IMG/VR virus record: IMGVR_UViG_2541047954_000002
Coordinates: 1-43,165 of that record
Source: a virus
Taxonomy: Duplodnaviria > Heunggongvirae > Uroviricota > Caudoviricetes
Reading direction: 5' to 3' (one strand)
DNA: 43,165 nucleotides
Below, piece by piece: positions 3,147-40,855 of the stretch. Under the pieces are notes generated by a model that worked only from the letters and a program-made list of their open reading frames with translations, made no database searches and had not been told where the DNA came from. Made by a program: the position numbers and the translations under genes. Positions within the stretch are counted from its first letter, which is position 1. Every line of letters begins with the position of its first letter.

Positions 3147-3470
3147 TTATTCATTGCCGATATTCACCTTTATCGCGAACACCTTTACCGGTTTATCGCC
3201 GAAGTGCGGATGTGTGATTGTCTTGATTTCATATCCGTCATACGGAACATCAATTCTACGGCTGGAATCGTCGCGCTTCGGATATCCCTTTGTGATAATC
3301 AGGCGATCATACTCCCGGAACATAATTCGCTTATTCCAGTAGTCATTACACAGGCGATACTCTTCCGTTTTCTCTCTGCGAATCATGGCATCGAAGTATT
3401 CACCTTTAACGGCAAGTTGTAGGTTAGCCAAGGTTAACCTCCTGCGGCGGTTCTGCTGCAAAATACGCAA
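3147..3470 (-). CDS. Hypothetical protein, 107 aa (start uncertain)
   Basis: Intact ORF in the early leftward operon; no confident family assignment. Confidence 0.4.
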   Translation of the reverse strand: MRILQQNRRRRLTLANLQLAVKGEYFDAMIRREKTEEYRLCNDYWNKRIMFREYDRLIITKGYPKRDDSSRRIDVPYDGYEIKTITHPHFGDKPVKVFAIKVNIGNE

Positions 3471-4275
3471 TACCTTTATCCCAGATGGATTTTATGGTCG
3501 TCCATGTGACTGGTACTTTAATTTCAATCCGCCCGCTACCGTCACAGGTATCGCAATCATCATCGCCAAAGCATTCCGGGCAGCTGATAAACGTAGTTTC
3601 TGAAAATTCACCGGATAGCGCACCCTTAGCGCCGTTCTCGGCTGTTAGTCTCTTCGGCACCATGACCCAACCATCCGGAGTTACCGGAGAGTTGCCATTT
3701 ACATCGAAGTTTGGCTCTGCGTCCTGAACCAGGAGGATGTAACCATTCTTGGCTGTATCAAGTTCTAACGCCTCGGTGACGGTGCCGAAATAGCGATTAC
3801 CTAAATCAGCATCACAAGTGCTTACATCAATGGAAACTTCCATGCCCTCGATTAATTCTGGCAAGTTGTAAGTTTGGCTTACGGGTTCGGCTTCCAGTTC
3901 TGCTATGCGCTTTTTTGCTGCTTCCAGATCAACACGCAGCTTCCCTACCGTTAGCGCAATATCCTCGTTCTCCTGGTCGCGGCGTTTGATGTATTGCTGG
4001 TTTCTTTCCCGTTCATCCAGCAGCGCCAAGACGGTAGCCGGATTGGCTGCGGCGATGAATTCAGCGTTGGCCTGCTGTTCCATTTGGAAATCTTCATCGA
4101 AACCGCTTTCTGGATGCGCTCCTTCAATTCTGCAAATAGGAATATATCCAGAAACCTCGCGATGAATTAGTGCATCATCACCATCAAATCGTCCCTCTCC
4201 ATATTCGAGCGACCATACACCACACGTTGCTTTCTCTGCCTTTTCACGCAGTGCCTGATAGTCAATCTTGCTCAC
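3424..4275 (-). CDS. Ead/Ea22-like protein with C-terminal Cys-rich zinc-ribbon; proposed GTG start with strong SD
   Basis: Contains the ANAEFIAAANPATVLALLDE-type motif and coiled-coil typical of Ea22-like proteins, C-terminal CPECFGDDDCDTCDGSG; AAGGAGG lies 6 nt upstream of the GTG at 4275; the ATG at 4467 would overlap the Lar domain by ~200 bp. Confidence 0.55.
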   Translation of the reverse strand: MSKIDYQALREKAEKATCGVWSLEYGEGRFDGDDALIHREVSGYIPICRIEGAHPESGFDEDFQMEQQANAEFIAAANPATVLALLDERERNQQYIKRRDQENEDIALTVGKLRVDLEAAKKRIAELEAEPVSQTYNLPELIEGMEVSIDVSTCDADLGNRYFGTVTEALELDTAKNGYILLVQDAEPNFDVNGNSPVTPDGWVMVPKRLTAENGAKGALSGEFSETTFISCPECFGDDDCDTCDGSGRIEIKVPVTWTTIKSIWDKGIAYFAAEPPQEVNLG

Positions 4276-16904: not shown

Positions 16905-17619
16905 GTTAATAAATGGCAATGCCATCAAAATGACAAGCATTGAAATCGCTGAGTTGGTGGGTAAGCGTCATGACAATGTGAAACGTACCATCGAAACGCT
17001 GGCTAAAAATGGTGTTATCCGGCTTCCTCAAATTGAGGTTTCCGAAAGAATCAATAACTTAGGGTTCAATGTTCAGTACGAGCATTACGTCTTCGAAGGC
17101 GAACAAGGTAAGCGAGACAGTATTGTCGTTGTTGCCCAGTTGTCGCCGGAATTCACCGCTCGCCTTGTTGACCGCTGGCGAGAGCTTGAAGAAGCTGCGG
17201 TTAGTATCCCCAAAACGCTACCAGAAGCGTTGCGCCTTGCTGCTGATCTTGCTGAGCAGAAAATGCAACTGGAAAACCAGCTCGCAATTGCCGCACCTAA
17301 AGTTGAGTTTGCCGATCGCGTTGGCGAGGCCAGCGGAATTTTGATTGGAAACTTTGCAAAGGTTGTCGGTATTGGTCCAAACAAACTGTTTGCGTGGATG
17401 CGCGATCACAAAATCCTTATTGCTTCAGGTTCCCGGCGCAATGTGCCAATGCAGGAATATATGGATCGCGGCTATTTCACAGTGAAAGAAACAGCGGTCA
17501 ACACAAATCACGGAATACAGATATCGTTCACCACAAAAATCACCGGGCGTGGTCAACAGTGGCTGACCAGAAAGCTGCTCGATAACGGAATGCTGAAAGT
17601 AACAGGGGAGGCTGCTTAA
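16897..17619 (+). CDS. Antirepressor-like protein: N-terminal Rha (pRha) domain + C-terminal KilA-C/AntA-type domain, 240 aa
   Basis: N-terminus resembles Rha-family proteins (compare the 20865..21401 gene); C-terminal half resembles phage antirepressor KilAC domains. Confidence 0.65.
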   Translation: MNELINGNAIKMTSIEIAELVGKRHDNVKRTIETLAKNGVIRLPQIEVSERINNLGFNVQYEHYVFEGEQGKRDSIVVVAQLSPEFTARLVDRWRELEEAAVSIPKTLPEALRLAADLAEQKMQLENQLAIAAPKVEFADRVGEASGILIGNFAKVVGIGPNKLFAWMRDHKILIASGSRRNVPMQEYMDRGYFTVKETAVNTNHGIQISFTTKITGRGQQWLTRKLLDNGMLKVTGEAA

Positions 17620-17909
17620 TGGCTAACCTACGCAAAGAAGCGCGCGGCAGAGAATGCCAGGTACATATTTACGGCGTATGCAATGGCAATCCTGAAACTA
17701 CAGTTCTGGCACATTACCGGATGGCTGGAATTTGCGGAACGGGGATGAAGCCTGACGACCTGATCGGCGCATGGGCTTGTAGCGACTGCCACGCGGAGAT
17801 CGACCGACGCACCCATAATCTCGACAACAAAGACGCCAGACTTTACCACCTCGAAGGCGTGATCAGGACGCAGGCGATACTGCTGAAGGAGGGGAAGATT
17901 AAACCATGA
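17619..17909 (+). CDS. nin-region Cys/His-rich small protein (DUF1364-like), 96 aa
   Basis: C...C...H and CSDCH motifs; located immediately upstream of rusA, as commonly seen in lambdoid nin regions. Confidence 0.45.
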   Translation: MANLRKEARGRECQVHIYGVCNGNPETTVLAHYRMAGICGTGMKPDDLIGAWACSDCHAEIDRRTHNLDNKDARLYHLEGVIRTQAILLKEGKIKP

Positions 17910-18268
17910 ACGAATATCAGTTTGTGCTTCCATACCCGCCGTCGCTGAATACCTACTGGCGAAGACGGGGAAGCCAATACTACATCAGCGATAAAGGCCA
18001 GAAATACCGAAAAGACGTTCAGCAAATCATCCGCCAACTCAAGTTAGACATTTTCACCAAATCACGACTCCGCATAAAAGTCATCGCAGACGTTCCAGAC
18101 TCCCGCCGCCGCGACCTCGATAACATCCTGAAAGGTTTACTCGACTCCCTTATCCATGCCGGATTTGCGGAAGACGACGAGCAATTCGATGACATTCGCG
18201 TAATTCGTGGTGTGAAAGTACCAGGCGGACGGCTTGGAATAAAAATCACCGAACTGGAGAACGTATGA
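17906..18268 (+). CDS. rusA: RusA Holliday-junction resolvase, 120 aa
   Basis: RRRDLDNILKGLLDSL...AGF..DD catalytic aspartate motifs and overall similarity to RusA; occupies the ninG slot. Confidence 0.85.
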   Translation: MNEYQFVLPYPPSLNTYWRRRGSQYYISDKGQKYRKDVQQIIRQLKLDIFTKSRLRIKVIADVPDSRRRDLDNILKGLLDSLIHAGFAEDDEQFDDIRVIRGVKVPGGRLGIKITELENV

Positions 18269-19752: not shown

Positions 19753-20212
19753 TCAACGTAAGGCGTTCCTCGATATGCTGGCGTGGTCAGAGGGAACTGA
19801 TAACGGACGTCAGAAAACCAGAAATCATGGTTATGACGTCATTGCAGGCGGAGAGCTATTCACTGATTACTCCGATCACCCTCGCAAACTTGTCACGCTA
19901 AACCCCAAACTCAAATCAACAGCAGCCGGGCGTTACCAGATTCTTTCCCGTTGGTGGGATGCCTATCGTAAGCAGCTTGGCCTGAAAGACTTCTCTCCGA
20001 AAAGCCAGGACGCCGTTGCGCTGCAGCAGATTAAGGAGCGTGGCGCTTTACCGATGATTGATCGCGGTGATATCCGTCAGGCAATCGACCGTTGCAGCAA
20101 TATCTGGGCTTCACTGCCGGGCGCTGGTTATGGTCAGTTCGAGCATAAGGCTGACAGCCTGATTGCAAAATTCAAAGAAGCTGGCGGAACGGTAAGAGAG
20201 ATTGAGGCATGA
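19736..20212 (+). CDS. R: Endolysin R (lytic transglycosylase), 158 aa
   Basis: [35 protein letters not shown]... matches lambda R. Confidence 0.97.
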
Positions 20213-20646
20213 GCAGAGTAACCGCGATTATCTCCGCTCTGATTATCTGCATCATCGTCTGTCTGTCGTGGGCTGTTAATCATTACCGTGATAACGCCAT
20301 TACCTACAAAACCCAGCGCGATAAAGCCACGTACATCATCGCTGACATGCAGAAGCGTCAACGTGATGTAGCAGAACTCGACGCCAGATACACAAAGGAG
20401 CTTGCTGATGCTAACGCGACTATCGAAAGTCTCCGTGCTGATGTTTCTGCTGGTCGTAAGCGCCTGCAAGTCGCCGCCACCTGTGCAAAGTCAACGACCG
20501 GAGCCAGCAGCATGGGCGATGGAGAAAGCCCAGGACTTACAGCAGATGCTGAACTCAATTATTACCGTCTCCGAAGTGGAATCGACAGGATAACCGCGCA
20601 GGTTAACTACTTGCAGGATTACATTAGGACGCAGTGCTTAAAATAA
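20209..20646 (+). CDS. Rz: Spanin inner-membrane subunit Rz, 145 aa
   Basis: N-terminus [34 protein letters not shown] as in lambda Rz; coiled-coil periplasmic domain. Confidence 0.9.
20402..20593 (+). CDS. Rz1: Spanin outer-membrane lipoprotein Rz1, embedded in the +1 frame of Rz
   Basis: Signal peptide with lipobox LVVSAC followed by a Pro-rich mature region; fully nested within Rz. Confidence 0.75.
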
Positions 20647-20688
20647 TTTTAATTTCACTGAAATTTAACAAGTGACTTTCAGGAAAAT

Positions 20689-20713
20689 GCCTCGCAGATG
20701 CGGGGCGTTTTTG
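20689..20713 (+). terminator. Candidate rho-independent terminator after the lysis cassette
   Basis: CCTCGCAGATGCGGGG hairpin followed by CGTTTTTG. Confidence 0.45.
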
Positions 20714-20864
20714 TATAGGTATTTCACCGCGCACCGCAGCGCACAATAACCACCGAACCTGACCCTTTGGAATGGGCCTTTGAGGATACCAGTTAGTGCT
20801 GGCGAGCCTCGGTGGGCTGGTTTCCTGTGCGGCAAAGGTTCATTTCGAAGTAGCAGGTAACGCC

Positions 20865-21401
20865 ATGAATGAATTAATTGTGAATCATGACTTTGACTTT
20901 CGCCAGTTAGTTACCGCAGCAGAAGGTCAACCGGTAACTGACACCTTCCAGATCGCAAAGGCATTTGGTAAGCGTCATGCGGACGTATTGAGGGCGCTGA
21001 AAAATTGTCATTGCTCTGAAGATTTCCGGAGAGCGCATTTTTGCGTTGCCGAAAAAATCAATGACTTAGGGATTTTTGACAAGAAACAGATTTACTACCG
21101 CATGGACTTTAGTGGCTTCGTTATGCTGGTCATGGGATTTAATGGCGCAAAAGCCGACGCTGTTAAAGAGGCCTATATAAATGCCTTTAACTGGATGTCT
21201 GCAGAACTCCGTAAGTACAGCGAAAGTTATGAAGCAGAACGCAACGCCATAATGCTGGAGTATATGAAAGAGAAGGATGTCGCCAGTATGTCTGGCCGCC
21301 TGCTCAATCGCTGGGGAAAAATTAAGAAGCCTCAGCTACTGGCGAGAATTGAACGCCTTGAACAGCACGGGCAAACCGTAATCCCCGGACTCACTAATTA
21401 A
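20865..21401 (+). CDS. Rha-family phage regulatory protein, ~179 aa
   Basis: N-terminus MNELIVNHDF...FGKRHADVLRAL parallels the Rha domain of the 16897..17619 gene; located between the lysis and packaging genes. Confidence 0.65.
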   Translation: MNELIVNHDFDFRQLVTAAEGQPVTDTFQIAKAFGKRHADVLRALKNCHCSEDFRRAHFCVAEKINDLGIFDKKQIYYRMDFSGFVMLVMGFNGAKADAVKEAYINAFNWMSAELRKYSESYEAERNAIMLEYMKEKDVASMSGRLLNRWGKIKKPQLLARIERLEQHGQTVIPGLTN

Positions 21402-33184: not shown

Positions 33185-34486
33185 ATGGCTACTTGGCAAC
33201 AAGGAATCAACTCAGGCGGCTTTCTTGCTGGTATCGGTGGGCAAAACTCAAATGCGCCAAAGGCAAGTGATGTAAGTGAGGCGTTGGCCTATATTCGCCA
33301 GAACAACGAAATGGAGCGCTCAGGTCGCAATAACATCGGCCTTCAGGCGTTGCAGGGTCTTGGTAGTGTCGCTCAAGCATATCAAGCCGCAAAGCAACAG
33401 GAAGCGGATGCTGCATTCCAAAAAGAATATGCGGCAGCCATCCAGTCCGGCGATCGACAGCAGGTTCGAAATCTGATGACCAAATATCCTGGTCAATTAG
33501 AGAAGATTCAGTCTGGTATGAAGTGGGCAGACGAAGACCAGCGCAATTCCATCGGTACCTTAGCGGCTGGCGCACGCCTTGCGTCATCGTCTCCAGAAGC
33601 AATGCAATCATGGCTGCAAAACAACGCCAAGGAACTGACTCGCGTCGGTGTTGACCCTAATAACGTTGCTCAGATGTATCAGCAGAATCCTTCAGGATTT
33701 GGTGAGTTTGTTGATCACCTTGGAATGGCTGCTCTTGGTCCGATTGATTACTTCAATGTTCAGGACAAGATGGCTGGTCGTGAGATTGACCGAGGCAGGC
33801 TGGCAGAGACAATCCGCAGCAATCAGGCAGGAGAAGCACTAACAGCTCGAGGTCAGGACATCCAGATACGTGGACAGAACATCAGCGCACAGAATGCTGC
33901 TCTTTCCCGAGAAATACAAAGAGCAGAATTACAAGAAAAGGCTCTGGACAGACAGATAGCCAGAGAAAGCAATCAGTTAAAGCTTGAAGAGCTAAAACAG
34001 AAACAGGCAGATGTTCGGCAAAAGGCTGACATAGCCCGCGCTGACAGGCAGGCCGCCGCTCAGGGTGCAGTTGATACGTTCAGCACCGCGCTTGATTCTC
34101 TCAACGAGATAGAGCAAAGCCCCGGCCTTTCAAAAGCAGTAGGAATTCGCTCAGCGTTTCCGACAGTTCCTGGCTCTGATGCGGCTAACTTTGAAGCAAG
34201 GCTCGACACCTTTAAAGCTCAAACATTCCTTCCTATGGTGCAGTCCCTGAAGGGTATGGGCGCTCTTTCAGATGCAGAGGGTAAAAAATTATCCGATGCG
34301 GTTGGTGCCCTAAGCCCCAAAATGAGTGAAAAGGCTTTTCGTGACTCTATCGGAAAGATTAGAAATCAGCTTGAAAGCAAGTTGAGCACTGTTAAAAAAC
34401 AGTTTGATTATCAGGAGCCGGTGCAGAATATGCCAGGGCAACAATCTACTACTGGCAGTAACTTTTCTTCGCTATGGGGTGATTAA
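33185..34486 (+). CDS. Ejection (DNA-transfer) protein, gp20-like, 433 aa
   Basis: Position and size in the P22-like order; Ala/Gln-rich. Confidence 0.7.
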   Translation: MATWQQGINSGGFLAGIGGQNSNAPKASDVSEALAYIRQNNEMERSGRNNIGLQALQGLGSVAQAYQAAKQQEADAAFQKEYAAAIQSGDRQQVRNLMTKYPGQLEKIQSGMKWADEDQRNSIGTLAAGARLASSSPEAMQSWLQNNAKELTRVGVDPNNVAQMYQQNPSGFGEFVDHLGMAALGPIDYFNVQDKMAGREIDRGRLAETIRSNQAGEALTARGQDIQIRGQNISAQNAALSREIQRAELQEKALDRQIARESNQLKLEELKQKQADVRQKADIARADRQAAAQGAVDTFSTALDSLNEIEQSPGLSKAVGIRSAFPTVPGSDAANFEARLDTFKAQTFLPMVQSLKGMGALSDAEGKKLSDAVGALSPKMSEKAFRDSIGKIRNQLESKLSTVKKQFDYQEPVQNMPGQQSTTGSNFSSLWGD

Positions 34487-36483
34487 TGGCTAAAGCATGG
34501 AAAGATGTTATCGCCTCTCCACAGTATCAGGCGTTAGCACCAGAACAAAAAGCGCAGGCTCAGGAGCAATACTTCAATGAAGTCGTTGCCCCGCAAGCCG
34601 GAGAAAATGCAGAGCAGGCTAAGCAAGCTTTCTATGCTGCCTATCCATTGCCATCTGTGCAGCCAGTGGAGACACAACAACCAGTATCACAGCAACAACC
34701 ACAGCAAAGTGGATTTATGTCGGATCTTGGTGAAGCCGTGAAAGAAACTGGTCGCGGACTGGTGCAGGCTGGCGTGAACGTGGCAAACATACCTGCATCA
34801 GTTGCCGATGCTGTAACAAGCGCGGCGGCATGGGCTGGCGGTAAACTCGGCATTGGCGATGGTACATATCAACCAGCGCCACGAGTAACAACGCAGGGGT
34901 TAGAGCAGGACTTTGGCCTTCAGCAAGGCGCGCTCACTCCACAAACGACAGAGGGAAGGGTATTTGCTGAAGCATTGCCTTACCTCACTCCTGCTGGCGT
35001 TGAGAGAGCGGCAGCACAGGCACCAACACTTGCTGGTCGAATTGCTCAGGGGGCAACTCGCCTTCTAGCAGAAAACGCAGTTGGATCACTTGCTGCAAAT
35101 AGTGCGAAAGATGATGCGGAAGCACTCGCCATCGATTTAGGCGTTGGCGTTCTGGCTGGCGGTGCTATTAACGCTGCCGGACGTGGATTAGGTGCTGCTT
35201 ATCGTGGCGTTCGTGGTGCTATTGCGCCAGAAGCGCAGCAGGCTATCAGATTTGCAGAGCGTGAAGGAGTTCCTCTGCACACCACAGACCTGTTACAGCC
35301 TACTTCCCGCGTCGGAAAAATGGCGCAAACGACAGCAGAAAATATCCCCCTGGCTGGCACAAGCGGAATGAGAGCAACGCAACAGGAAGCGAGAAGCCAG
35401 TTGGTTCAGAGATTTGCTGATAAATTCGGTGAGTATGATCCAGCGGTTGTTATTGACAGCCTTAAAGCGAAAACATCAGGAATTCGTCGTGCCGCCGGTA
35501 ATCGACTGGAGCAGGTTCAGAATGCTATGGCGGGAATAAACATTCAGCCTGCAAGAGCAATTCAGCAGATTGATACAGAAATATCTAACCTGCAGAAGCT
35601 TGGTAAGGTTGCTGATAACGAGACTATTTCAAAACTTCAGTCCTATCGTGATGAGCTTGTTCGCAATGCTGGTCCTGATGGTCCGGTAAATCTGGATTTG
35701 AAGCAATTAAGCGATCTGCGCAGCCAGTTCAGAATGGATGTGAAGGGTGAGCGACCAGTGTTACCAAACCGTTCCGATGCTGCCATTCAGCGCGTTTACA
35801 AGGCAATGACCGACGATATCAATGGTGCCATTGGTCAGAATCTTGGCAACGATACTCTCCGTAAATATCAGCAGGCCAATGCCGTCTACGCTGACGAAGC
35901 GGCGAAACTAAAGAATACCATGCTGAAGAATGTTCTCATGAAAGGCGACCTGACGCCGGAAGTTGTCAACAACATGCTATTCAGCAAGAACAAATCGGAA
36001 ATTAAGACGCTGTATAACTCAGTTGGTCGTGTTGGCAGGGCGCAAATGCGCAATGGCATCATTGGAAAGGCGATGGAGAAATCAGGTGGTTCCCCTGATC
36101 AGTTCCTTCGACAGCTTAACATCCTGCAAAACCAGACTGGCATCACATTTAAGGGGCAGGACGCTGCTTATCTGAAAGGATTGAAAAACTACCTGCAATC
36201 CACGCAGCAGGCTGCAAAAGCGGCAGTAACAACACCAACAGGGCAGCAAACCATCCCGTTCATTATCGGGTATGGGACAGCAATGAACCCGGCGACAACT
36301 GGCGCAGCGGTAAGCTACGGACTTCTTACTCGCGCCTATGAGAGCGAACCATTCAGAAATGCAATGCTCCGAATGGCAAACACACCACGCGGATCGACAG
36401 CGTTTGAGAAAGCCATGCAGCAAGCGCAAAAAGCGATTAATGCACTGACGCAGGGTGCTAAGTCTGATTCGTTGTCAGAATAG
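34486..36483 (+). CDS. Ejection (DNA-transfer) protein, gp16-like, 665 aa
   Basis: Position and size in the P22-like order. Confidence 0.7.
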   Translation: MAKAWKDVIASPQYQALAPEQKAQAQEQYFNEVVAPQAGENAEQAKQAFYAAYPLPSVQPVETQQPVSQQQPQQSGFMSDLGEAVKETGRGLVQAGVNVANIPASVADAVTSAAAWAGGKLGIGDGTYQPAPRVTTQGLEQDFGLQQGALTPQTTEGRVFAEALPYLTPAGVERAAAQAPTLAGRIAQGATRLLAENAVGSLAANSAKDDAEALAIDLGVGVLAGGAINAAGRGLGAAYRGVRGAIAPEAQQAIRFAEREGVPLHTTDLLQPTSRVGKMAQTTAENIPLAGTSGMRATQQEARSQLVQRFADKFGEYDPAVVIDSLKAKTSGIRRAAGNRLEQVQNAMAGINIQPARAIQQIDTEISNLQKLGKVADNETISKLQSYRDELVRNAGPDGPVNLDLKQLSDLRSQFRMDVKGERPVLPNRSDAAIQRVYKAMTDDINGAIGQNLGNDTLRKYQQANAVYADEAAKLKNTMLKNVLMKGDLTPEVVNNMLFSKNKSEIKTLYNSVGRVGRAQMRNGIIGKAMEKSGGSPDQFLRQLNILQNQTGITFKGQDAAYLKGLKNYLQSTQQAAKAAVTTPTGQQTIPFIIGYGTAMNPATTGAAVSYGLLTRAYESEPFRNAMLRMANTPRGSTAFEKAMQQAQKAINALTQGAKSDSLSE

Positions 36484-36573
36484 CCTTTCAAACACCAGGA
36501 ACGTGCAAAAACCAAATATGTAGAACGCGAGGTTTATCGTATTCCTCTGCATAGGCGATACCTTTGCTGATTG

Positions 36574-37059
36574 TTATCTGATGTTACTGCTACTGTTGCA
36601 TGTTACCGCGTTTCCAAATCCTGAATTGCAGTTTGTATATGTGTCAACGCGTGTTGGGTAAGGTTGAGTTATAACAGGCTGGCGCGCTTTTTGCTCGATC
36701 GCTTGCATTGTGTTTACAGCCTGATAATTCAATAAAGCCTGCTGGAATGCTTGGCTTTGTGCTATTTGTTGGGCTTGTTCTTGGCTTTGTAATTGAACAT
36801 AAAGATTCTGAAGCTCAAGTCTTGCCTGTGCGTCACTTATCTTGCCTTCATCGACACCTTGCCCGAGCATCTTTGCAGCAAGGACATACAGCTTAGGTGT
36901 TGGTGCTGATGCCATGCGTGAGTCGTTCTTCACACTGGCATCAAGGCAATTAGCCATATCGCTAAGCTTTTGATAGCGTTGTTCGCAACTTGCTTGATAG
37001 TCACTTACTTTTGCGCACCCAGCCAGCAGAAGCGGGATAATTAACAGTGATTTTTTCAT
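36574..37059 (-). CDS. Lipoprotein (signal peptide MKKSLLIIPLLLAGC), 161 aa, opposite strand to the late operon
   Basis: Lipobox LLAGC; strong AAGGAGAG SD; in the sieA/immI slot between gp16 and the tailspike. Confidence 0.7.
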   Translation of the reverse strand: MKKSLLIIPLLLAGCAKVSDYQASCEQRYQKLSDMANCLDASVKNDSRMASAPTPKLYVLAAKMLGQGVDEGKISDAQARLELQNLYVQLQSQEQAQQIAQSQAFQQALLNYQAVNTMQAIEQKARQPVITQPYPTRVDTYTNCNSGFGNAVTCNSSSNIR

Positions 37060-37093
37060 ATAATTAACTCTCCTTAGTTTTGCGCAGGATACC

Positions 37094-37459
37094 ATGAAAA
37101 AAGTTAACATTGGAAACGTACCAAAGATGCTCGTTCCGCTCTTTGAGAGCGGTACAATTGTGTTTTGTAGAGACTTTCCAGAATGGCAACGCCTGCATCA
37201 AAAACTTGGCGTTGACGTGCATGACTCGGACGCCAACGGAGCGTCTCATACAATGAGTAGCGAGAATGGTGTTTTGCATGTGATAGGCGTGTTCAATGGC
37301 AAACTATCTACTATTGCCCATGAGTGCGCTCACATGGCATTCGATATCTGCTCAAGGGTAGGTGTTGATGTTGAACCAGGAAGAGCCAACGAGACTTACT
37401 GCTACTTAATGAGCAGGCTTGTTGAGTTCTGCGAGCGACATATCAAAAAGCCGGAGTGA
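37094..37459 (+). CDS. Hypothetical protein with HExxH motif (IAHECAHMAFD), 121 aa
   Basis: ORF with a possible zinc-metallopeptidase HExxH motif; weak SD; overlaps the probable promoter region of the lipoprotein gene. Confidence 0.3.
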   Translation: MKKVNIGNVPKMLVPLFESGTIVFCRDFPEWQRLHQKLGVDVHDSDANGASHTMSSENGVLHVIGVFNGKLSTIAHECAHMAFDICSRVGVDVEPGRANETYCYLMSRLVEFCERHIKKPE

Positions 37460-37472
37460 CCCGGCTTGATTA

Positions 37473-37652
37473 TTACTTTTTGCTGTCTGGAGTTCGCTTA
37501 TCCAATACCCAGCCATGACCTGGCTTTGTTGTTGGTGGAAGCCTTTCGTTGTCCTTGACGGTTGCAAAATTGTCTTTCTTACCGCCGCGTGGGCCAACTT
37601 CTTGGTATATTCCGCCGTTTTTTCCTGTGTTTTCACCTGGTTTTTTCGCCAT
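37473..37652 (-). CDS. Small hydrophilic protein, ~59 aa, YjzC-like
   Basis: MAKKPGENTGKNGGIYQEVGPRGG...LPPTTKPGHGWVL pattern resembles small YjzC-family proteins; hairpin plus T-run immediately downstream on the minus strand. Confidence 0.4.
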   Translation of the reverse strand: MAKKPGENTGKNGGIYQEVGPRGGKKDNFATVKDNERLPPTTKPGHGWVLDKRTPDSKK

Positions 37653-37734
37653 GATATACCTCAACATACACCCGTTATTGGGCGATTAAATATTGATCTC
37701 ATTTTATAAGTAGTCAATATGGCCCAGGTAAATG

Positions 37735-37767
37735 CAAAAATTAACCCACCTTCAGGTGGGTTTTTTG
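37735..37767. terminator. Bidirectional terminator-like hairpin overlapping the mnt stop codon
   Basis: ACCCACC-TTCA-GGTGGGT hairpin flanked by a T-run on the plus strand and by AATTTTTG on the minus strand. Confidence 0.5.
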
Positions 37768-38003
37768 TACAAATCCTTCAGCGTATCAAACACCATCTTC
37801 TTAACAAGTTCAGACTGCTCATCAGCGATGCGTTCCGCATCGTCTCGATAGCCTGAAATTTTGGATGGCTTTGATACGGCATCAGTCACTATCTGAACTA
37901 ATTCTGAATTAAGAGAGCGGCCATTGGATTTGGCTCGCTGTTTTAGTTTTTCCTTTAATTCGTAAGGTAGCCGCAGATTAAATTGCGGGTCATCTCTTCC
38001 CAT
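37752..38003 (-). CDS. mnt: Mnt repressor (ribbon-helix-helix), 83 aa
   Basis: DDPQFNLRLPYELKEKLKQRAKSNGRSLNSELVQIVTDAVSKPSKISGYRDDAERIADEQSELVKKMVFDTLKDLYKK closely matches remembered P22 Mnt. Confidence 0.9.
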   Translation of the reverse strand: MGRDDPQFNLRLPYELKEKLKQRAKSNGRSLNSELVQIVTDAVSKPSKISGYRDDAERIADEQSELVKKMVFDTLKDLYKKPT

Positions 38004-38077
38004 TCTTGATGCCTCGCTTTTGTGAGTGGATCGGCATCTTATTATCTGCTGGTTGCATCCTCAATAAGACCACAGTG

Positions 38078-38092
38078 GTCTCTTTGTTTGAT
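38078..38092. promoter_or_regulatory. Candidate Mnt operator (perfect palindrome AGACCACAGTGGTCT) in the mnt upstream region
   Basis: 15-bp perfect palindrome between mnt and the tailspike gene. Confidence 0.4.
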
Positions 38093-38149
38093 TAATAATG
38101 CATCACTGTGGCAATGCTGCGGCGATTCCTTGTATCTGGAGCAAATTAA

Positions 38150-40855
38150 ATGACAGACATTACAGCCAATGTTGTAGTGAGTATGCCTTCGCAACTCTTC
38201 ACTATGGCGCGTTCTTTTAAAGCCGTAGCCAATGGCAAAATTTATATCGGTAAAATTGACACTGACCCGGTAAATCCTGAAAACCAGATTCAGGTTTATG
38301 TAGAGAACGAAGACGGTTCTCACATTCCTGTTTCGCAACCAATAATCATTAACGCTGCTGGATATCCGGTATATAACGGACAGATTGCCAAATTCGTAAC
38401 CGTGCAAGGCCATTCTATGGCTGTTTACGATGCTTATGGCACTCAGCAGTTTTATTTTCCAAATGTATTAAAATACGATCCAGATCAGTTTGGCCCAGAC
38501 TTCAAAGAGCAGTTATCTCAATCAGGAGCATACATTAATGATGATTCAAAAGGTGATGCATTAATTGGGGTAAGGCAGCCATTTACCGGGGCTGTAACTA
38601 TAACTCAGCATGAAAACAATGCTCTTTTCTTAAATGTAAAACAATTTGGAGCAATTGGGGATGGGAAATATCATCCATTATCTGAGTGGTTTTCTTCAAT
38701 TTCTGAAGCAAAATCCTTATATCCTTTTGTTGACTCATTATCTCAGTCAATAGACTGGGCCGCGTGGCAAGCTGCCATTAACACAGGAAAGGTTATTTAT
38801 GGTACTGATAATGCGTATGTAATAACGGATACGTTAACACCTGTTTCTGGTGGTGGGATAATTGGTCTTGGTGTGGGCAAATGGGTCTCCGGATATACTG
38901 CAACATTTGCTCCTGATATTACCACAGGGACCACATTCCTGATGTACGGTGTAGGAAATAAAAAATATACTGTAGATTGTGTTTCTAATATGGATGTTAG
39001 TGGTGGTGTGGTTTCTAATCCATCTTCCGAAGACCCGTATACAACAACGGCACCTGCGTCATCATATGATTTATTGGATTTTACTAACGGTGATGCTAAT
39101 GGGGCTACAAGAGCCACGCTTAAACCATTCTCTGCCGCAATATTGATGCCAGAGACAGGATGTGTTCGCCTTGAGAACTTTCGTATTGTTCCATATTTCA
39201 ATGGGCTGGATGGTTATAAAGACATTGCAAATACCGGTCTTGGCGATGAGTGGGATGTAGGTATTTGGTCACGTGCGTCTTTTGGCAATGAATACCGCAA
39301 TTTGCAGGTGGTTGGATACTGGCGCAAGACGGCACTTTTAAAAACGAACATTCCTGTATCTGGCACGCTGGCCGCTCAGGGCGAGGATGAAAACTATTAT
39401 CACTGTAGATTCCAGGGATTCAAGGGTGTTTCGATCCGCGCCCATGATGTATTCCGAATTACAGCGGTAACGTCCAGCACTATCGAAATCCCATGGTCAT
39501 CAAGCCACACCTTCGAAACGTCCGGGGTTTTAAGATCGGGAGGCAGGAATTTCACTTATTCAGGATTATCCGTATCCGGTGATAAGTTAGTATTTACTGG
39601 AGTGTCTAACGCTTCTGAGGCAACAGTAGGTTCTACTATACGGCGAAATGACATAGATAACTTTGGTATGGCGGGAACGCAATTTTTCGATTGCTACATT
39701 ACCAGCCTGTATCACCACACACATCTGCTTGCCACATCGCAATACCTGTCTCAGCCATTCAGCCGGCCATCAGAGTGTATGGAGGTTTCAGGGGAACCAG
39801 TTCGCGGTGTACAGGTACATGCGGGAACCATTCAGGGATGGGATGATGTTCTTATTCATCTGCATGACTGTGGAAATATGAACTTTTACAGTACATATTT
39901 CGAAAGCCAGCAAGCATATGTAACTATAAATGGTGGTAATGCTATTGGTTATGGAGCACGTATGATAGCTTCCCGGCAATCAACAAGCTCATTACCATAT
40001 GCAGCAGGGAATACTCGAGTGCTTAGAATGGTCGGGTGCTCTGAAGGCAATGGCGTTGACTGGGGTCCTGTATTTAACAACTATACAGGAGGAAGATATA
40101 ATTCTGGAGACGGTGTATTTAACCCCCGCGATGCATTTATAGACCATAAATCTCTTCCTGAGCAGTCAGGAGGTGAGTCAAGACTCGTATCACAAAAAGG
40201 AAATGCCAGAGTAGTATGTGGTGTTGGTAAAACTGTACTGCTTGGACCAACGTCAGGAGATTGTAATTTACAGAGTAATACTGGAAGTTTAAATATTAGA
40301 AGTGGGATAAGAGTAAGAATCGGTCACGCTGATGGAACAGACTGGTGGTTGGCAGATGCTAATAAAATAGCTCCTGTTGATGATAATGTTAAAGCTATTG
40401 GACAGCCATCAAACAGATGCTCTGTTATCTATGCAGGAACCGGGTCAATCAATACATCAGATGAAACTCTTAAAACAAGATATGATATTCTTAATGCAGA
40501 GCGTGATGCCGCTATTGAAATAAAGTCAGTCATCTATAAATTTAAATTTAATGACTCAATTAATCACAAAGGAATTGAGTCGTCCAGGTATCATTTTGGC
40601 GTTGGCGCTCAAACCGTAGGGGATATTCTTAGAAAGCATGGTTTAAATCCTGAGCAATATGCTTTTTGGTGTTACGATGAATGGCCTGACGTATGGGATG
40701 AAGAGGTGATAACTGAAGAGAGCACAGATCCTGATACAGGTGAGAAAATTTATTCTCAATATAAAACAGGAGATATGATTCTTGTAAAAAAAGCAGGAGG
40801 ACGCTACGGAATTCGTTATGACGAATTGGCTATGTTTATATTAATGGCAATGTAG
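38150..40855 (+). CDS. Tailspike protein: P22 gp9-like N-terminal head-binding domain, divergent receptor-binding body, C-terminal intramolecular-chaperone-like domain, 901 aa
   Basis: N-terminal ~115 aa [43 protein letters not shown]...[10 protein letters not shown] parallels P22 tailspike; C-terminal region has an SDETLK motif resembling autoproteolytic chaperone domains. Confidence 0.9.

Follow-up and report, generated by a model that had tools for sequence, protein, structure and literature searches.

Which gene does a P22-like phage carry between gene 16 and its tailspike gene when sieA is not there? The interval is the documented position of sieA, or 'ant moron' position, in P22-like phages (PMC2629481, PMC10883804), as a sequence-only reading of the DNA studied here had stated. 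sieA itself is found in only about a third of sequenced P22-like phages (PMC10883804), and the slot content of those without it is largely unexplored. We investigated the interval in the Caudoviricetes record IMGVR_UViG_2541047954_000002 of IMG/VR (43,165 nucleotides; this whole stretch is referred to as the window), where it holds a gene for a 161-amino-acid lipoprotein.

Over the interval studied, the window and the E. coli CH10508 chromosome agree at 99.9% identity. Annotation of the 43-kb counterpart there by the Prokaryotic Genome Annotation Pipeline (PGAP) shows a P22-like (Lederbergvirus-type) prophage that is complete, is flanked by dsdC and yfdC and has intS and tRNA-Arg at its right end; PGAP also calls the same four genes of the interval. 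The interval is part of the late operon and is bordered by gene 16 (ejection; 34486-36483, plus strand) and the tailspike gene (38150-40855, plus strand). The strand flip described in the sequence-only reading is present, with the three minus-strand genes mnt, orf59a and the lipoprotein gene between these two plus-strand genes. The reported absence of arc and ant was confirmed for the whole window and extends to sieA, since P22 SieA, Arc and Ant queries gave no match anywhere in it (tblastn). That description of the locus was thus essentially right and is partly confirmed, with corrections on the operon and on one hairpin that are given below, and the interpretation attached to it is partly supported.

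We propose, giving it an even chance, that the prophage makes a Lol-sorted outer-membrane lipoprotein which fills the place of P22 SieA and would act in superinfection exclusion.

The lipoprotein gene in the sieA slot

The lipoprotein gene (36574..37059, minus strand) encodes a precursor of 161 and a mature protein of 147 amino acids and is supported by its open reading frame (ORF), by the PGAP call WP_047613045.1 and by a match to phrog_6067. The LLAGC lipobox and the strong Shine-Dalgarno sequence that had been described are both present, the latter as AAGGAG 10 nt before the ATG (37070..37075, minus strand). We rejected an upstream start that would give 178 amino acids, which has no Shine-Dalgarno sequence; PGAP and the homologs begin at the ATG of the 161-amino-acid form.

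A three-way alignment of the window, P22 and Gally placed the right-hand boundary of the cassette at this Shine-Dalgarno sequence, which serves sieA in P22 and where identity to P22 starts. P22 itself is 97% identical to window positions 37066-37853 (megablast), and the 100 nt upstream of the lipoprotein start codon differ from P22 by one mismatch. This upstream DNA includes the annotated PsieA promoter of P22 (AF527608 13861-13891), whose homologous stretch in the window (37094..37124, minus strand) coincides with the first 31 bases of the gene hkcC on the opposite strand. At the left boundary, many E. coli prophages match the window from positions 36575-36578, which correspond to the stop codon, despite carrying a different gene 16. 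Because the boundaries fall at the Shine-Dalgarno sequence and at the stop codon, the exchanged cassette is the ORF alone. The reverse case is seen in E. coli EC931, where the slot encodes a 164-amino-acid protein 92% identical to P22 SieA and the hkcC, orf59a and mnt proteins are identical to those of the window.

Judged from these alignments, the lipoprotein ORF has taken the place of sieA exactly, as an alternative allele behind a common Shine-Dalgarno sequence and PsieA region. Such a replacement makes expression in the lysogen and a role in exclusion the most economical reading. In P22, a single-copy sieA with only 85 bp of upstream DNA gives full exclusion (Leavitt et al. 2024, PMC10883804). 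The window also has a perfect inverted repeat, CCGCTCT-TTG-AGAGCGG (37136-37152), at a distance of 12 nt upstream of the putative -35 hexamer of PsieA. It falls inside hkcC codons 15-20 (PLFESG) and is identical in P22, and could be either a regulator site or mere coding constraint.

Complete E. coli genomes carry the gene about five times as often as type-A sieA (186, including O26:H11 11368, vs 35 of 5426), behind the control region that the two have in common. It was also found in five phage records, namely Gally, vB_EcoP-720R6, Salmonella VSe13, MS2 LVA and Proteus Brookers, and at five loci in a scan of GTDB species representatives. Homologs formed 93 clusters, drawn from Escherichia, Citrobacter, Serratia, Cronobacter, Klebsiella, Pectobacterium, Yersinia, Morganella, Providencia and Tatumella. 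The position between gene 16 and the tailspike gene recurs in Tatumella, Providencia, one metagenome-assembled genome, VSe13, Gally and Brookers.

To describe the surroundings we classified the best 80 of 125 matches in IMG/VR. In all 80 loci the lipoprotein gene lies between gene 16 and the tailspike gene, and sieA was found in none of them. Where the stored stretch reaches gene 16, the lipoprotein gene is convergent to one of three unrelated gene-16 types. The tailspikes that accompany it are of at least five different lengths. The arrangement of the window (mnt-orf59a-hkcC) was seen in 16 of the 80 loci, and some loci keep a full arc/ant module. In 50 loci the gene immediately upstream is mnt, in the same orientation as the lipoprotein gene. 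Brookers shows this order as a promoter-like site, mnt, a 17-bp gap, the lipoprotein gene and a terminator, and in O26 there is no terminator between the two genes. The family therefore most often takes the form of an mnt-lipoprotein operon, though not in the window. A different, plus-strand lipoprotein gene intervenes in ten loci; this is Gally gp14 (3209-3628 of locus L001, plus strand), which encodes an unrelated lipoprotein beginning MKRIIGVVAGAILLSGC... that belongs to phrog_6823 (unknown function). In Gally and in these ten loci, gp14 stands in for hkcC and orf59a on the late strand.

A predicted outer-membrane lipoprotein and its possible role

The precursor starts with MKKSLLIIPLLLAGC, and its signal peptide and lipobox occupy codons 1-15 (37015..37059, minus strand), followed by Ala at +2 and Lys at +3. 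Cysteines are found at positions 15, 25, 38, 144 and 154. Cys15 is the lipid-attachment site, and the pairs Cys25/Cys38 and Cys144/Cys154 are probable disulfides, which would fit an oxidising compartment. A lipobox of the form [LVI][ASTVI][GAS]C is present in the window protein and in 213 of 235 family members; none of these 213 carries Asp at +2, and 159 have exactly five cysteines. In the +2 rule for Lol sorting, Asp at this position is the Lol-avoidance signal that retains a lipoprotein in the inner membrane. Because it has a lipobox without Asp at +2, the 161-amino-acid protein is predicted to be an outer-membrane lipoprotein. No transmembrane segment was found in it (no 19-residue window with Kyte-Doolittle hydropathy above 1.6). 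Invariant positions in the homolog alignment include G14, C15, C25, C38 and C154, plus a run of helix residues, and the lipobox and cysteine pattern is kept across 50% protein divergence.

The ratio of non-synonymous to synonymous substitution rates (dN/dS) was 0.04-0.27 in comparisons with five diverged alleles, with a value of 0.04 at dS = 0.52, and the VSe13 allele differs by 38.5 synonymous and 8.5 non-synonymous changes. The gene is under strong purifying selection, for which we rely on ratios of 0.04-0.11, and together with the conservation this rules out a spurious ORF.

The same data bear on whether the active product could be the RNA. The sequence-only reading had placed a hairpin after each minus-strand gene, but for the lipoprotein gene a hairpin scan found no terminator (36484-36573) and the downstream RNA folds like shuffled sequence (z = -1.15). 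The stop codons of the lipoprotein gene and of gene 16 are only 2-14 bp apart in other prophages (L011 3486-3500; L012 3498-3501). Since there is no terminator and the stops are so close, the lipoprotein mRNA should run antisense into gene 16, which recalls the exclusion RNA STnc6030 of BTP1. An unterminated minus-strand transcript antisense to the 3' end of gene 16 could then silence homologous phages, with the protein being secondary, and STnc6030 would be its precedent (PMC7067206). We consider this very improbable, as the purifying selection seen against VSe13 acts at the protein level, the lipobox and cysteines outlast the divergence given above, and three unrelated gene-16 sequences are found next to this one gene.

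Analysis of the structure predicted with AlphaFold gave a helical domain at residues 18-95 (predicted local distance difference test, pLDDT, about 80); the long helix that continues to residue 125 and the hairpin at the C terminus are of low confidence. The homology and structure searches that the sequence-only reading had called for yielded phrog_6067 (unknown function; E = 9e-110, residues 1-161 of the 161-position profile) and many relatives. Scans against Pfam, NCBIfam and PADLOC gave nothing above noise, a PDB sequence-profile search gave no meaningful match, and comparison of the model with solved structures returned generic helix bundles at most. We found no literature on the 161-amino-acid lipoprotein. 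An identity as an Rz1-type spanin was rejected, because the prophage has its own lysis cassette at 20065-21282.

We propose that the gene would be transcribed in the lysogen, from PsieA in the window and as the second gene behind mnt in most relatives. The product would be anchored in the inner leaflet of the outer membrane with its body reaching into the periplasm, and this body is predicted to consist of a helical domain of ~75 residues, a Gln-rich helix of ~50 residues and a disulfide-closed C-terminal hairpin. The lysogen would thereby be protected from superinfection, most likely by disturbance of the outer-membrane/periplasmic part of the DNA-ejection conduit that gp7, gp20 and gp16 of incoming P22-like phages form. 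We favor interference with the conduit because the slot partner SieA acts on it (PMC10883804), because the gene 16/tailspike junction of BTP1 is likewise the source of an exclusion factor (PMC7067206), and because the gene travels with ejection genes across many hosts, whatever the tailspike. A broader proposal, which we put forward only tentatively, is that the protein may be the founding member of a new exclusion class that jams the gp7/gp20 conduit from the outer-membrane/periplasmic side, complementing the inner-membrane protein SieA, and that its chromosomal relatives may be domesticated anti-podovirus defences across Proteobacteria.

Several observations weigh against exclusion through the conduit. 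The PsieA hexamers are weak and a promoter scan made no call there, and the structural model is only moderately confident (mean pLDDT 63). Further, the low dN/dS is unexpected for an arms-race factor facing the hypervariable gp16 and gp20. Together with the independence from gp16 type, it would fit a conserved host target equally well, as in Cor/Llp-like masking. In that case the lipoprotein would attach, from within the periplasm, to an outer-membrane protein and shut out unrelated phages that use this protein; alternatively, it would block a secondary receptor for P22-like phages. Either way it would leave the conduit alone. The predicted location, the strong purifying selection, the occurrence with any gp16 or tailspike type and the precedents of T5 Llp and the Cor proteins all suit such masking. 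We nevertheless hold it to be rather unlikely: no sequence relation to Cor extends past the signal peptide, the lipoprotein is 2-3 times the size of Llp and Cor and has a predicted long helical stalk, and it has the position and promoter of sieA, whose action is confined to P22-like phages (PMC10883804).

The last point against the proposed exclusion role comes from the distant relatives. An exhaustive profile search returned 251 representative relatives at E <= 1e-3, one of which is a singleton in the homolog search. Most are lipoproteins of 125-140 amino acids that share the N-terminal domain and a C-terminal C-x-G-x-C motif, and the sole family matched among them was phrog_6067, with no match to Pfam. 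Their contexts are mixed. While one lies on a phage-like contig, others occupy ordinary chromosomal neighbourhoods, among uvrC, pgsA and bio genes or in the enterobacterial dsbB-minCDE region, so the role of the fold need not concern phages and may lie in host physiology. The relative in the dsbB-minCDE region (L023 6438-7411) sits between a gene resembling that for DNA polymerase III theta (65 amino acids) and ycgN. A theta-like gene is also found beside the tailspike gene of the Proteus phage Brookers (L027 513-806), and this chromosomal copy may therefore be a prophage remnant.

If such relatives point to the function, the protein would serve lysogenic conversion or envelope physiology, as a Bor/Iss-like fitness factor or a housekeeping periplasmic lipoprotein captured by phages, and would leave phage infection unaffected. 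Clinical E. coli, with sequence type 131 (ST131) and O26 among them, account for many carriers, which would agree with this. We regard it as unlikely, given that the close family occurs only in the slot between gene 16 and the tailspike gene, in hosts of diverse lifestyles and also in Salmonella and Proteus sewage phages, that there is no match to Pfam Lambda_Bor or another family, and that the gene swaps specifically with sieA.

We conclude that the lipoprotein gene is real and was accurately placed. For its part in exclusion, which we infer from sequence and genomic context, the support is firmer than could be seen from the letters of the window, and it is the best available hypothesis. The gene is a good candidate for a new way of keeping out rival phages. 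If it does exclude, it would offer a second, topologically opposite probe of the trans-envelope DNA conduit of short-tailed phages and would explain part of the resistance to P22-like phages in clinical E. coli (ST131, O26); without such an effect, it would count as another prophage moron.

mnt, orf59a and hkcC beside the lipoprotein gene

The mnt gene (37752..38003, minus strand) encodes an 83-amino-acid repressor of the Arc/Mnt family. Its identification held up: the N-terminal Arc-like ribbon-helix-helix (Pfam Arc PF03869, 2.8e-22) and the C-terminal Mnt tetramerisation domain (Repressor_Mnt PF11423, 2.2e-18) are both matched, and the protein is 76% identical to P22 Mnt. Upstream of it, the 15-bp perfect palindrome AGACCACAGTGGTCT noticed earlier is indeed present (38067..38081), once in the window and at the position of the P22 Mnt operator AGGTCCACGGTGGACCT, with which it aligns column for column. 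It is conserved in five loci with the same mnt allele and is probably the Mnt operator. No second copy within 3 mismatches was found in the window, and control of the lipoprotein gene by Mnt was rejected on this ground.

Mnt carries Gln at residue 6, where P22 Mnt has His, and the operator half-site reads AGACCAC here vs AGGTCCAC in P22. In SE1, C is the central base of the operator. The changes in Mnt and in the half-site may represent co-variation of repressor and operator. Reading by eye, we identified a Pmnt-like promoter, TTGAGG-17 nt-TAAGAT (38036..38064, minus strand), which aligns with the P22 Pmnt hexamers and lies below the scan threshold. The stretch aligned to P22 Pant (TCGGCA-17 nt-TGCATC) is degraded, the gap between mnt and the tailspike gene is only 146 bp, and neither sar nor any other RNA family had a significant Rfam match in the interval.

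The small ORF described as YjzC-like (37473..37652, minus strand; 59 amino acids) is a real gene, the homolog of P22 orf59a (98% identity), and is also supported by phrog_3202 and a PGAP coding sequence. The likeness to YjzC is weak, scoring 19.4 bits (E = 0.0014) against Pfam PF14168 and thus below the 25-bit cutoff. Hairpins follow both of these minus-strand genes, as had been stated: a bidirectional terminator-like one at the 3' end of mnt (37743..37762), and a bidirectional terminator between orf59a and hkcC that corresponds to P22 t_mnt (37448..37467). The proposal of a single minus-strand operon does not hold, because t_mnt and the plus-strand gene hkcC part mnt and orf59a from the lipoprotein gene, which has its own PsieA-like upstream region. 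What is left of immI here is a module of mnt, orf59a and the palindromic operator of mnt; it has terminators of its own and is outside the lipoprotein transcription unit. PGAP also annotates a gene for a KilAC-domain antirepressor in the nin region (17454-18176, plus strand), and mnt is an orphan without an ant gene to control.

hkcC (37094..37459, plus strand; 366 bp) lies on the late-operon strand and encodes a cytoplasmic protein of 121 amino acids with HExxH and NET motifs. It had been treated as an uncertain ORF, which we can correct: it is a conserved gene, called by PGAP (WP_000757525.1), matched by phrog_1365 (E = 1.7e-39) and 99% identical in P22, where AF527608 leaves it unannotated. 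The name hkcC was already given to it in P22 and HK620, with no function assigned (PMC2629481). Among 19 homologs the HExxH (H76 E77 C78 A79 H80) is invariant and NET nearly so, and homologs down to 43% identity retain the motif, with H76, E77, C78 and H80 unchanged. The AlphaFold model (pLDDT 89) shows a sheet and a helix bearing HExxH. Foldseek matched 26 proteins of phages at E <= 1e-3, among which a few bear the name SprT-like or metalloprotease, and such structural relatives occur in many unrelated phages; a PDB sequence-profile search gave no meaningful match. We read hkcC as a separate late-strand gene for a small, possibly zincin-like protein.

The tailspike at the right border has 901 amino acids. 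Its first ~125 residues resemble those of P22 (70% identity) and Gally (90%), and the remainder is unrelated to both.

Likeness to known systems

In P22-like phages, gene flux is known to be high in the 'ant moron' or immI region (Villafane et al. 2008, PMC2629481). The window differs from that region in that arc, ant, sar and sieA are missing. The P22 and epsilon34 genes described in the text of PMC2629481 do not include the lipoprotein gene. It also differs from Lambda Bor and Iss, as no Pfam Lambda_Bor match was obtained at E <= 1.

Phage-encoded lipoproteins that block a superinfecting phage at the envelope are described for T5 (Llp), phi80, N15 and HK022 (Cor) and Streptococcus phage TP-J34 (Ltp). 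According to work cited in PMC10883804 and PMC3952083, Ltp is prophage-expressed and targets an injected phage protein. The lipoprotein studied here resembles these proteins in kind, but has no homology to them, and no PDB sequence or fold match was found for it. For Cor, the phrog_1119 match covers only the signal peptide (residues 1-31, E = 0.03). Its predicted build of helical domain, long Gln-rich helix and Cys-closed hairpin likewise sets it apart.

BTP1 STnc6030 (Owen et al. 2020, PMC7067206) is a minus-strand prophage transcript from the junction of gene 16 and the tailspike gene with an exclusion phenotype in BTP1. While STnc6030 has no ORF of more than 60 amino acids, the lipoprotein transcript carries a well-conserved protein gene.

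The closest counterpart in position is P22 SieA itself. SieA crosses the inner membrane several times and has a cytoplasmic FxRYPxEAxxFNK motif (PMC10883804), and P22 SieA has three hydrophobic stretches. The lipoprotein has a cleavable lipoprotein signal, no transmembrane helices and a predicted outer-membrane or periplasmic location, and P22 SieA, the SieA sequence compared, does not align to it at E <= 100 (BLASTP). The two are alike in the slot convergent to gene 16 in the 'ant moron', on the opposite strand (80 of 80 loci), in the Shine-Dalgarno sequence and PsieA upstream region, and in size (161 vs 164 amino acids), and they alternate in otherwise identical prophages.

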